A DNA stretch of 64,000 nt from Dictyostelium discoideum (taxonomy: Eukaryota): contig CM000150.2 in assembly GCA_000004695.1 (NCBI GenBank), forward strand, positions 896,001 to 960,000. Direction: 5' to 3'. The position numbers and the translations under genes are program-made. This document shows positions 3,153 to 46,790 of this stretch, one piece after another (positions within the stretch are counted from its first letter, which is position 1; every line of letters begins with the position of its first letter). Below the pieces are notes generated by a model. That model worked only from the letters and a program-made list of their open reading frames with translations, did no database searches and was not told the origin of the DNA.

Positions 3153-6100
3153 ATGAATAATAATAATAATCAAAATAATAACCAAAATAATAACCAAAAT
3201 AATATTATCCATAATAATAATCATAATTTAATTTCAAATATTAGCCAAAATAGTATTAGCCATAATAATAATAATAATAATAACCATAATATAAATAGTA
3301 ATCAAAATAATCAAAATATTAATAATATAATAGGTAATAATAATAATAATAATAGTTTAAATTCAAATAATATTCCAAGTAATTTAAGCATTATAAGTAA
3401 TAATAATAATAATAATAATAATAATAATAATAATCAAAATAATCAAAATAATCAAAATAATAGTAATAATCAAAATAATAATAATAATCAAAATAATAAT
3501 AATAATAATTTAAATTCAAATAAAGGTCAACCAATTGTAAATAATAATGGACAAATTTTATATGAATGTGATTGCCATTTATGTCAACGTGGTCCGCCAT
3601 TATTAACGGTCAAATTCTATAAGACTGGATTATGGAAGAGAAAGTTAGAGATTTGTTTATGGGTGGTATTAATGAGACAACTTAAAGAGGAATCAATTAA
3701 TGAAATTGAAACAGGAACCTATGATGAAACAACCGATGTAATCAACGTTAACAATGTCAATGGAAATAATATTATAACCACGCCAATCGGTCAGAATAGT
3801 GAATATAAATATAAGGAGATGAAGAATTTCGTTCACACCAGTGTGATCGCCGAATTTGTAGAGACACATCATCATCTCCTCGAATTGACATCCCAAATTG
3901 AAGGCGAAGAAGAATGGAGACACTCTGTAATCAAAGCATTATCAAATCATAAAGATACCTTTAAATCCGGTTTACATTCCCCATTTGGTAAGAGAGGATT
4001 TTGGTCATTACAAGAACACCATTTAAGTGATCCTTGGGATGATTCCGATAATAGTGATGATGAAGAGGATCAAAATAACAACAACAATAGTAATTTAAAT
4101 TTAAACGATGGTGGTAGTAATGGTAATAGTGAAGAAAAAGAAAAGAAACAACCAGTTCCACACCATCCAGTTAGAACTCCAATCAATAGGTCAACCCATA
4201 GATGTGGTGTAGTTGACAAACTTAATGGAAATAAACCTTGTCATCGTATTGGTTTTTGTAGAGATCATTATACAATCACTTTAAAGAAATTAAAAGTCCC
4301 AAAAAAAAGTAAAAAAATTAAAATTGTAAATCATTATAATAGTAGTTTAAATAATAATAATAGTAACAGTATGAATAATAATAATAATAATAACAATAAT
4401 ATGAATAATAATAATAATAATAACATGAATAATAATAATAATAATAATAATATGAATAACAATAGTAATAGTAATAATAACAATAATAACAACAATAATA
4501 ATAATATGAATAATATGAATAATAATAGTCCAAACAACCTTTTTAGTAATAATATGGTCGCCACTAATTATGGTTATAATAATAACAATAATAATAATAA
4601 TAATAATAACAATAACAATAATAATAATAATAATAATAATAATAATAATAGTAATAATAATAACTATAATAATAGTAATAATAGTAATAATAATAATAAT
4701 AATAGTAATAATTATAATAATAGTAATAATGGTAATAAATATCTTAATGGTAGTGGCGGTGGCGGTGGAAGTTGCGGAGGTAGTGTCTATAATAATAGTA
4801 GTGACGAGTATGATGATTATGAGGAAGAGTATGACGAAGTTGAAGAGATTAATTCCGATCATGAAAGTAATATGTCCATGAGTGCCAGTTCTAATAATGG
4901 AAATGGGGCAGGAATGGATAGTAGTTTTAATATAAAGAGATCTTCCTCATCTTCATTGTCAACATCACCATTACCATTAAGTAGTCCATCACTTCCATTT
5001 AGTGGAAAAAGAAATTATTTATCTCAACTTGTACAACCAAATCCTGCATCATCATCATCATCATCATCATCATCATCATCATCATCATCATCATCATCAT
5101 CATCATCATCATCATCATCATCATCATCATCATCATCATCATCATCAAATTCCTCTTCTTCTTCTTCTTCTTCTTCCTCAACCAACCTTTCATCATCACC
5201 ATCCTCTTCAACTACAATCCCAACTTTATCACCACCAAATAATAATAATAATAATAATAATAATAATAATAACAATAATAATAACAACAATAATAGCAAT
5301 ATTACCACAACTACAATCTCATCAACTTCATCATGTTCATCATCAGCGATTTCATCATCAATTTCGTCACCAATTACACCATCATCAGCGATTTCATCTT
5401 CATCAATATCCTCATCATCATCATCTCCATCTTCTTCATCTTCATCATTTCATACTCAACCACAGCCATTCCAAATTAAAACACAACAACACCCATTCCA
5501 ATTACAACATCATAATAATAATAATAATAATCAACAACAACAACAACAACAACAACAACAACAACAACAACAACAACAACAACACTACCAATCATCTTCA
5601 CATCATATTAATAATCATCATAATAATTTCCATCAACATCAAAGCTATAGTATTCAACCACTTAGAACTTCATTACAAGTAATAAATGGTAATTTTAATA
5701 ATATCTCTGATTTTGAAAAAGATATCTTACAAAACTTCAATTTCTATTCAATTATCAATCATTTAGATAGTCAAAAGAATGCATGTTTGGATTTATATAA
5801 ATTGAGTAGAGAATATGTTAGATTCATTATTTTAAAAATAATAGATTCCGATACAAATAATCATGAATCTGGTTCTGGATATAATGTTAAATTATTACCA
5901 AGTCCATTAATTGATGTAAGTTGTTATTTATTAGTATTATTTTATTTTTAGTATTAATTATCTAATTACTTTTTTTACTAATATTATTACTATTTATTAT
6001 TATTATTATTTTCATTATTTTAGTTATTTTGGAGAACTCATATATTATTTACAAGCTCATATAGACAATTTTTACAATTAATTGATGTCAAGATTGGTTA

Positions 6101-6230
6101 TGAGCCAAATTCTGATTCTCAAGAAGATCGAAAACAAAAGTATGAAAGAACACTCGACTTGTATAAGTCTCATTTTCCACCAATTCAACCAAAATCAATA
6201 GAAAGAGAAATTTGGGCATTGGAATTGTAA
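3153..6230 (+). CDS. Paralog family member 1. Low-complexity (poly-N/S/Q) protein of about 989 aa. Two exons, approximately 3153..5915 and 6024..6230.
   Basis: Long ORF 3153..5951. Conserved blocks: ILYECDCHLCQRGPP, FKSGLHSPFGKRGFWSL, knuckle HRCGVVDKLNGNKPCHRIGFCRDH, C-terminal FEKDILQNFNFY...LYKLSREYVRFIILKII. Donor GAT|GTAAGT near 5916 and acceptor tttag|TTATTTTGG near 6023 join to ...LFWRTH...KYERTLDLYKSHF...EIWALEL, matching the terminal exon of the paralogs. Confidence 0.6.
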
Positions 6231-44508: not shown

Positions 44509-44973
44509 TTTGGTTTTTTTTTTTTTTATTAAAATCTATTTTTTATATAAAATTTATTCCTTACTTGTTGTTCTTCAAAATAACAAAAAATCCAAAAATG
44601 GATGATAAATAATTAAATTCCAAAAAGAATTATTTCATTTTTTTTTTTTTTTTTTTTTTTTTTTTATATTTTATACCATTTTATGTATTTTTGAGTGTTT
44701 TATTTTTTTATAATAAATCCATATTAACAATAAACAAAATTAAATAATTGTTTTTTTAAAAAAAAAAAAGGAAATGAAAATTTTCATGAATAAATAAATT
44801 AAAAAAAAAATGAAAATATTTTTTTTTTTTAACTCCCATACCAAAAAAAAAAAAAAAGAAAGTATTTTTTTTTTTTTTTTTTTTTTTTTGAACAAAACAC
44901 CAAATAAATATATAAAAATTATTTAAATTTTTTTTTTAATTTTTTTTAAAGAAAAAAAAAAAACTTCAATTAA

Positions 44974-46790
44974 ATGGATGAACATATTATAAGATTATAT
45001 GATATTAATGGTAAAGAAGCAATTCAAATTAATGGTAGATGGTTAGATGTTTTAGGATATTCAGAATTAGCAACACAAGCAGATTCATTAGGTATACCAC
45101 AAGCATTAACACATTGTCCAAAGATACAGATCTATAATAAAGTTTTATCATTAGTTAAAGAAACAAGGGAAGAAAGTGAAGTACCAGTTGATTTAATACC
45201 ATGTGATTGTTTAATTTGTTTAAAAGGATTACCCAAATCATTTAAATCGGGTGATAGTGGCAGTACAATTCAAATTTGGCAAGAACGTTTAAAGATTATA
45301 ATGTTTGTAGTCTGTCACCAACAAGAAAAACATGGTAAAGAATTGGAGAAAGAATTACAAGACCGTGGTTTTAAAAAGAATTCAAGTATTAAAAAAATAT
45401 TGGGTTCAAAGAAATCCTATATACATATAAACGAGATCACCTATTTCCTTGATACTCATTCCTCCATATTAAAAGTAAATTTAGAAGAATCTTGGAAATC
45501 CGCTTTAGTTAATGGTAAAGATTTCATCTCTGGTTTCGATAAATTTAATATCAAAGGTTATTGGACACTTGCAAATTTAGAGGATCCTTTTTCACCAACT
45601 TATAATTTCGTCTCAAATTCATCTGCAATTTTACCAATTAAAAATAATAATAATAATATTAATAATATAAATAATAGTAATAGTAATAGTGATAATAATA
45701 ATGATAAAAGTAATAATGATAAAAGTAATAATAATAATAATAATAATAATAATAATAATAATTATAGTATGGTTGTTTATAATAATAGTAATGATAATAT
45801 TGATAATAATAATAATGATAATAATAATGATAACAATTTAAATTATAATGATCTTAATAATTCACCAACTAAAAAAACATGTGGGGGTATTACAAAGACA
45901 GGGAAACCATGTGCAAAAATTGGATTTTGTAGTTTTCACATGATAAGAAAGTTAGATGGTACTTTTGAAATTCCACCATCAATAAATAATAATAATAATA
46001 ATAATAATAATAATAATAATAATAATAATAATAATAATAATAATAATAATAATAATAATAATAATAATAATAATAAATTAAATATTAATTCTGAAAATAA
46101 TAAAAATAATAGCGATGAAGATACTGATACTGATAGTGGTAGTGATGAATATGAAAGTGTTGAAAATGAAAAAAATAGAAAAAGGAAAAGAATTAGTTGG
46201 AATGGTAGTAGTCCTAATAATAATAAAACTCAAAATTATATTTCACAAACAACATTTAAAGTTAGAGAACTCGAAAAAAGAATTTTAGATAATTTTAATT
46301 TTTATAGATTCATTCTTAAATTTGAACAATATGGGTAATTAATTATAATTTATAGATTATTTATTATTTATTATTATATAAATAATTTATTAAAAAATTT
46401 TTTTTTTTTTTTTTTTTTTTTTTTTTTTTTTTTTAATACAATATTAAAAACTTTAGATATCGTTTACCACGTGAATTTGTTAGATTCATTGCATTAAAAG
46501 TAATTTGTGATGAAACTGGTGAAAATCATGAATCAACAATTTTACAACCTCCGAAATTGATTGAAGAATTTTGGATTCAAATCATTTTAACAAGTTTGGA
46601 ATATAATAGATTATTAAAGATTATAAATGTTGAAAAGATAAGATATGATCCAGATCTTTTATTAGACGAACCTCCAATTCAGAGAAAACGATATGAAAAA
46701 ACCCTCCAATTGTATAAAAAGTATTTTAGATTTGATAAATTTGATTCAGAAATTTGGAAAGAAAACTATCTTTTAGAAAGTAATGATTAG
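44974..46790 (+). CDS. Paralog family member 6, about 564 aa. Two exons, approximately 44974..46334 and 46457..46790.
   Basis: IRLYDINGKEAIQINGRWLDV, CDCLICLKGLP, FISGFDKFNIKGYWTL, knuckle KKTCGGITKTGKPCAKIGFCSFH, ELEKRILDNFNFYRFILKFEQYG|. Intron GG|GTAATT...ctttag|A joins to YRLPREFVRFIALKVI...RYEKTLQLYKKYF...EIWKENYLLESND. Confidence 0.6.

Follow-up and report, generated by a model that had tools for sequence, protein, structure and literature searches.

What is a short element of three cysteines and a histidine doing in a cluster of repeat-rich paralogs of the social amoeba Dictyostelium discoideum, and to which known motif is it closest? The question is raised by 64,000 nucleotides of contig CM000150.2 (GenBank assembly GCA_000004695.1, positions 896,001 to 960,000 of the forward strand), hereafter the window, whose positions we number from its first base. 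Hidden Markov models (HMMs) built from the paralogs and run over the whole window identify exactly six genes with a common N-terminal module (members 1 to 6), and four of the six carry a copy of a 19-22-residue element, C-x8-11-C-x5-6-C-x2-H, that we call the Cys3-His knuckle (Table 1). We conclude that this motif is real, and that chance recurrence is ruled out.

A first-pass annotation, made from the letters of this DNA, had described the element as C-x9-11-C-x5-6-C-x2-H in four paralogs, and the spacings we measured agree (x11/x5/x2, x9/x5/x2, x9/x6/x2 and x9/x5/x2 in members 1, 4, 5 and 6). The C-G that was said to open each window copy is present, as is a Gly 7-8 residues further on. A Phe or Ile directly before the third Cys, also claimed, holds for two of the four copies; in the other two, I or F stands 2-3 residues ahead. 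All four quoted peptides were found letter for letter in the window, but the positions given for them were 2-21 bases off, and two would be out of frame if translated literally. Our knuckle spans run from the first Cys to the His, and the quoted peptides are longer. In a six-frame translation of the window, the pattern has only these four matches, and neither a loosened C-x7-14-C-x4-10-C-x2-H in the same six frames nor the HMMs from the paralogs found any further copy.

The ligands are conserved across species. The relatives that could be named come from D. purpureum, D. citrinum, D. firmibasis and further D. discoideum isolates, and each is annotated 'hypothetical protein'. When eight copies (from D. 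discoideum, D. purpureum and D. citrinum) were aligned, no column other than those of the three Cys and the His was invariant, and a ninth copy, from the D. firmibasis orthologue of member 6, keeps all four. Conservation of the ligand positions in orthologs was the point on which the first-pass annotation had staked its proposal; the finding survives. Additionally, Gly follows Cys1 in 7/8 copies and stands 2-3 residues ahead of Cys2 in 8/8, the spacing in the relatives is x8-9/x5-6/x2, and other isolates of D. discoideum (P0122, P0271) have exactly the member 4 knuckle. Member 6 and its D. firmibasis orthologue are 76% identical in the N-module, 26% in the linker, 77% in the knuckle and following hairpin, 33% in the second linker and 85% in the C-domain. 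As in the window, coronin is a close neighbour of this orthologue and is on the opposite strand; the 21.5 kb syntenic locus yielded the member 6 orthologue only, and hence one added orthologous knuckle. The subfamily with the knuckle has so far been found only in the D. discoideum, D. firmibasis, D. citrinum and D. purpureum lineage. Dictyostelium is the social amoeba group with the most complex multicellularity.

These data bear on the simplest alternative, that Cys and His recur by accident in low-complexity proteins and form no metal site at all. The proteins are indeed repeat-rich and the motif is short, yet shuffled windows give 0.025-0.04 matches (about 0.03 per window) and 0.0006 are obtained when the shuffle is confined to the residues of the six family proteins, against four observed. 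The location relative to the wing of the neighbouring domain is constant, and in four species the ligands never change, although the flanking residues do diverge. Shuffling, ligand invariance and flank divergence together effectively refute a chance origin, to which we give hardly any credence.

What kind of knuckle is it? A TIS11-type CCCH finger (C-x8-C-x5-C-x3-H) is ruled out by the last spacing and by zero Pfam zf-CCCH matches. TIS11 and tristetraprolin resemble the knuckle in ligand order (three Cys, one His) and in the first and second spacings, but the fit fails because the His stands two, not three, residues after the third Cys. This x2 spacing is found in 9/9 copies, which bears out the earlier description of a CCCH arrangement outside the TIS11 pattern. 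No match to zf-CCCH was obtained among eight copies, even at E <= 10, and the knuckle copies are single where TIS11 fingers form tandem RNA-binding pairs.

The closest known motif lies elsewhere. When a 4-sequence knuckle profile was compared with 177,635 PDB sequences, three chains were retrieved, all of them SCA7 domains: ataxin-7 2KKR (E = 0.029), ATXN7L3 2KKT (E = 0.38) and ataxin-7 in 7KTR. With an eight-sequence profile 2KKR remained first (E = 0.4). SCA7 (PF08313; ataxin-7, ATXN7L3, yeast Sgf73; 2KKR, 2KKT, 6T9I) has the same ligand order, and its pattern, C-x9-10-C-x5-C-x2-H, is fitted exactly by members 4 and 6 and missed by one residue in one loop by members 1 and 5. Solved SCA7 chains (HCGVIDLDTKKPCTRSLTCKTH, QCGVELPEGGYCARSLTCKSH) are spaced x10/x5/x2 in ATXN7 and x9/x5/x2 in Sgf73. 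Both motifs have Gly directly after Cys1 and a hydrophobic residue at +3, and fungal SCA7 forms also have Gly 3 residues ahead of Cys2, as in the knuckle. Alignment of profiles with hhalign gave a probability of 64% for four knuckles against five PDB SCA7 sequences, 76% for eight knuckles against the same five, 77% for eight against 82 SCA7 domains and 88% for eight against the SCA7 zinc half, with P values of 6.5e-5 to 3.5e-6; these results are suggestive but fall short of what is commonly accepted as proof of homology. In 600 alignments with decoys, in which the ligand columns and column composition were kept and the remainder permuted, none reached the real score (26.6-26.9 versus a decoy mean of 12-14 and maximum of 26.0). 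The likeness to SCA7 therefore extends beyond the four aligned ligands. The 'distinct Zn-knuckle' of the first-pass annotation is distinct from the TIS11 type, but it shares its spacing with the SCA7 zinc-binding domain, which gives the best PDB and profile-profile match.

From such similarity the knuckle could be taken for a divergent, truncated but true SCA7 domain, homologous to that of ataxin-7 and Sgf73, that binds the nucleosome or anchors its protein in a SAGA-like complex. We regard this as unlikely. Pfam SCA7 scores reach 12.9-13.7 bits (best E = 0.057) against a gathering cut-off of 23, and no more than 3/8 copies appear among the matches. When the window's 913 open reading frames (ORFs) were searched with a full-domain HMM from 82 SCA7 domains, the knuckles did not stand out (best E = 0.15), and an HMM of the zinc half gave them no significant score there. 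All copies in the eight-copy alignment lack the strongly conserved SCA7 part RSLTCKxHS...KRAVxGRSxPYDxLL, that is, the RSLTC loop and the helical half S..KRAV.GRS.P[YF]D.LL. After the His, SCA7 has helices, whereas the model of member 6 has a short beta pairing, and the host proteins are unrelated to ATXN7 and Sgf73, which are subunits of the SAGA deubiquitinase module. Because the SCA7 HMMs fail to pick out the knuckles, we stop short of classing the motif as an SCA7 domain. On sequence comparison the knuckle is SCA7-like at its putative metal site and SCA7 is its closest known motif; membership in SCA7 is not demonstrated.

Another Cys3-His finger that stands beside a DNA-binding domain is that of Mcm10 and primase, and the knuckle might be a relative of it that binds single-stranded DNA. 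Member 5 has no better Pfam match than a weak one to the zf-primase family (PF09329; E = 0.016), which is matched by member 6 and one D. purpureum copy too, 3/8 copies in all and the same count as SCA7. However, these scores of 11.8-15.4 bits are far under the 28.8-bit cut-off, and at a limit as lax as E <= 10 the PDB matches of the knuckle profiles include neither Mcm10 nor primase. The loops between the ligands are longer in Mcm10. Kinship with this finger is very improbable, and we treat the resemblance as a functional analogy.

The proteins that carry the knuckle are informative about its setting. In domain order they consist of the N-module, a low-complexity linker, the knuckle (members 1, 4, 5 and 6), further low complexity and a C-domain of ~135 residues (members 1, 2, 5 and 6). 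Long low-complexity linkers are common to all six paralogs, and the window has a G+C content of 21.7% with abundant Asn, Gln and Ser runs. Gene models were spliced by matching conserved sequence across GT..AG introns; that of member 2 stops exactly at 9813, the end given in the first-pass annotation.

Neither the six proteins nor their C-domains had a significant match when scanned directly against Pfam, and a word-indexed homologue search with the six N-domains gave 0 matches. The latter is explained by exact look-ups in the large protein collection, from which members 3, 4 and 6 and the coronin ORF are all missing, though other D. discoideum isolates and the AX4 protein DDB_G0283791 are present. 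An exhaustive HMMER search, based on aligned ordered regions, returned 516 relatives, and a later search with a broader alignment found relatives too. Relatives of the N-module core exceed the cut-off of 25 for Pfam PF21198, 'ASH2L-like winged helix' (P0155, 35 bits; P0157, 25.4), while the window's own proteins fall below the Pfam threshold for this family when scanned directly. Against solved chains, a 32-sequence N-module profile matched the N-terminal regions of ASH2L (3RSN, 3S32; E = 2e-6), Polycomb-like Pcl and PHF1 (E ~1e-5) and, more weakly, forkhead boxes (E ~0.03). With both sequence-profile and fold matches to a solved zinc-tail plus winged-helix region, the N-module is a zinc-tail and winged helix of the ASH2L and Polycomb-like (PHF1, MTF2, Pcl) kind. 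The first-pass annotation had described the motif but overlooked this context, which gives it meaning.

ASH2L and Polycomb-like proteins bind DNA through such a zinc-tail plus winged-helix module. Their module (PF21198; 3RSN, 5XFR, 5OQD) is the counterpart of the host domain and not of the knuckle; none of these proteins has a CCCH knuckle after the wing, unlike the Dictyostelium subfamily, which also adds an N-terminal beta-hairpin/helical extension and the C-domain. The label GRDP-like (PF07173) for this C-domain derives from a relative, P0133 (E = 7e-12), and the window C-domains have no direct match. The family profile finds hundreds of relatives, many of which join SAP, GRDP-like and ubiquitin/SUMO-like domains. 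This setting places the knuckle in probable DNA- or chromatin-binding proteins. Clusters like nuclear localization signals occur in three members (KGKRKR, GKKRKKSK, KNRKRKR), with KGKRKR of member 4 immediately upstream of the knuckle in the protein, and the host proteins are probably nuclear.

The N-module also contains a second, separate candidate metal site. A C-x-C-x2-C is invariant in 6/6 members, and its C-x2-C, together with a His in the first helix of the winged helix (His162 of member 6), is invariant across 32 relatives; the C-x2-C aligns with ASH2L 'HCNVCHH', the end of the ASH2L PHD-type finger. In the window C-domains, FWRTH, FWHTL, FWFLH and FWIQI stand as degenerate forms of the usual 'WHxH' motif.

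The knuckle always follows the wing motif G[YF]WxL..DPW, at a distance of 33-60 residues in D. purpureum and D. citrinum (33-35 in 3/4 copies) and of 68-122 in D. discoideum, where the distance is longer because repeats have stretched the linker. In D. purpureum DICPUDRAFT_99781, two winged-helix-plus-knuckle units stand in tandem (residues ~45-230 and 280-470), so that winged helix and knuckle were duplicated together as one unit. The net charge of the knuckle is +2 to +4 over its 19-22 residues in 9/9 copies. We lean, with moderate confidence, towards a single-zinc basic knuckle that assists the adjacent winged helix in contacting DNA or chromatin, including the nucleosome. One zinc ion would be held by the three Cys and the His, the bound zinc would rigidify a short and invariably basic loop, and this loop, with the neighbouring winged helix, would offer a second contact point on DNA or the nucleosome. 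The logic would be analogous to that of the SCA7 zinc module and of the CCCH finger beside the Mcm10 OB fold. That the four residues bind zinc is deduced from their strict retention in four species; the binding partner and the cooperation with the winged helix are likewise inferred.

Several observations weigh against this reading. The knuckle alone, modelled with AlphaFold from a 4-sequence alignment, was unstructured, with a mean predicted local distance difference test score (pLDDT) of 47. In a 340-residue model of the member 6 module, residues 300-335 have a pLDDT of 79-86 and form isolated beta bridges and, after the His, a short beta pairing (324-325 with 331-332), but this higher score may simply reflect a deeper alignment. 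Linker residues 224-299 of that model are disordered, and the 68-122 mostly disordered linker residues of the D. discoideum proteins make a fixed bipartite unit less likely. Finally, the lack of a knuckle in members 2 and 3 and in D. purpureum P0124 and P0141 means that it is dispensable for the role of the core module, whatever this may be.

Some of the same data suit a different role, in which the knuckle makes protein-protein contacts or acts as an intramolecular clasp, through dimerisation, partner recruitment or packing on the N-module, and touches no nucleic acid. Small zinc knuckles often mediate protein contacts, and in SAGA cryo-EM structures the SCA7 domain of Sgf73 reportedly sits inside the core module. 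The knuckle was modelled confidently only along with the N-module, and the segment after the His (MIRKLDGTFE or MIRRADNTFE) is conserved and takes part in beta pairing in the model. However, positive charge in all nine copies and an adjoining DNA-binding domain fit a polyanion partner better, and the non-ligand loop residues vary considerably between paralogs, which is unusual for a specific protein interface. We therefore consider such a role unlikely.

Assistance to the winged helix at DNA or chromatin could also be cast in a bolder form. The knuckle would then be a free-standing minimal SCA7 zinc module that was captured by a winged-helix protein, making a bipartite reader of DNA or the nucleosome; the proteins would form an uncatalogued and rapidly expanding family of chromatin or transcription regulators restricted to the Dictyostelium lineage, and the zinc half of SCA7 would be independently mobile. 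This we hold to be quite unlikely and offer as speculation.

The first-pass annotation had attributed the absence of the knuckle from members 2 and 3 to modular loss. In the broader family of winged-helix proteins the knuckle is absent from 24 proteins (from Polysphondylium, Acytostelium, Cavenderia, Tieghemostelium, Heterostelium and other sources) and from the winged-helix-only matches among 150 representatives. Within the subfamily, knuckle-bearing members include the deepest branches of a neighbour-joining tree of 113 columns, and members without a knuckle stand at three places: member 2; member 3 with its D. purpureum partner P0141; and D. purpureum P0124 beside member 6. As internal support was poor and support values were hard to read after re-rooting, the tree was used for parsimony only. 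A single gain followed by about three losses is favoured, because it is a more parsimonious history than one in which an alignable motif arose independently several times, and the knuckle was thus probably present in the subfamily ancestor and lost in some paralogs. Because the tree is short and weakly supported, loss over gain is a preference and no proof; the claim of loss stands as the more parsimonious account, on a weak tree.

No Pfam model covers the knuckle, and members and relatives alike are annotated as hypothetical proteins. The main catalogue of social amoeba transcription factors screened 97 known families (PMC6873476); its main text mentions winged helices for E2F/DP only, forkhead, SCA7 and CCCH go unmentioned there, and the host family of the knuckle is absent from the text. 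If our reading is correct, ASH2L/Polycomb-like winged-helix proteins that have gained a zinc knuckle form a clustered and fast-evolving family in D. discoideum, and these candidate DNA or chromatin regulators are missing from current lists. The family would also be a compact test case for the role of an SCA7-like zinc module detached from SAGA. The find is incremental: the motif is of a familiar kind, the variant is restricted to one lineage, the architecture is new, and there is no surprise in principle.

Table 1. The six paralogs, their knuckles and C-domains, knuckles of relatives, and neighbouring or syntenic features. Positions are those of the window unless a D. firmibasis contig (L001) is named; ~ marks approximate limits.
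Feature	Positions	Strand	Structure or peptide	Details
Member 1	3153..6230	+	exons 3153..5915, 6024..6230; 989 aa	N-module ~3429..4046; knuckle; GRDP-like C-domain
Member 2	9813..12316	-	exons 12316..10382, 10283..10219, 10125..9813; 770 aa	N-module 11711..12316; without knuckle; GRDP-like C-domain
Member 3	18771..22553	-	single ORF; 1260 aa	N-module 21855..22553; without knuckle; C-domain not detected
Member 4	28216..29787	-	single ORF; 523 aa	N-module ~29047..29787; knuckle; C-domain not detected
Member 5	30752..33405	+	exons 30752..32892, 33063..33405; 827 aa	N-module 30752..31450; knuckle; GRDP-like C-domain
Member 6	44974..46790	+	exons 44974..46334, 46457..46790; 564 aa	N-module 44974..45618; poly-Asn linker; knuckle; GRDP-like C-domain
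Knuckle, member 1	4203..4268	+	CGVVDKLNGNKPCHRIGFCRDH	C-x11-C-x5-C-x2-H; net charge +2; quoted peptide 4197..4268
Knuckle, member 4	28840..28899	-	CGKLTLRGSRCGFSIPCSYH	x9/x5/x2; net charge +3; quoted peptide 28840..28905
Knuckle, member 5	31754..31816	+	CGALRSKGGTCTIPFDKCRYH	x9/x6/x2; net charge +3; quoted peptide 31748..31816
Knuckle, member 6	45880..45939	+	CGGITKTGKPCAKIGFCSFH	x9/x5/x2; net charge +3; followed by conserved MIRKLDGTFE; quoted peptide 45874..45939
C-domain, member 1	~5688..5915, 6024..6227	+		GRDP-like
C-domain, member 2	10283..10219, 10125..9816	-		GRDP-like
C-domain, member 5	32774..32892, 33063..33402	+		GRDP-like
C-domain, member 6	46249..46334, 46457..46787	+		GRDP-like
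Knuckles, D. purpureum DICPUDRAFT_99781 (P0123)			CGAITHRGNICQKTSICPFH, CGAITNRGNICKKPLNKCLFH	two knuckles
Knuckle, D. purpureum DICPUDRAFT_99766			CGVPTPRGKCQRIGTCPTH	
Knuckle, D. citrinum protein			CLAKTQKGYCQKLVGSCPYH	
Knuckle, D. firmibasis orthologue of member 6			CGGITKSGKPCAKIGFCSYH	
Interval with conserved gene order, window	44974..48711			
Interval with conserved gene order, D. firmibasis	L001 10001..16166			
Called gene, D. firmibasis	L001 11823..14663		946 residues	between member 6 orthologue and coronin
Gene without winged-helix module	7417..9465	+		GRDP-like domain ~8050..8349
Unrelated ORF	13280..14089	+		Cys/His cluster, Asn run

Gene order around member 6 is kept between the window and D. 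firmibasis, while the low-complexity linkers have almost wholly turned over, and in D. firmibasis a further gene is called between the member 6 orthologue and coronin. In another D. discoideum isolate, P0121, annotated as the member 6 orthologue (window equivalent 45700..45940), lacks the first knuckle Cys ('...VVYNRKPCAKIGFCSFH'). This is probably an artefact of annotation or assembly and not a true loss, because both the poly-Asn stretch and the first part of the knuckle are passed over by the gene model.

Elsewhere in the window are a coronin ORF and a mitochondrial-type RNA polymerase ORF. The gene without a winged-helix module contains a GRDP-like domain (E = 5.5e-7 with an HMM built without this gene) and ends in a Tudor/Agenet-looking segment, 'YPVGSLVEAKCYAFGESHDQSFFEAEIKSYDDINGKYLVEF'. 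Additionally, the unrelated ORF encodes a dense Cys/His cluster, 'GSCTFEGCKRKCLMFCKNKNRKTCTCTHSLSYH', which is followed by a long Asn run.

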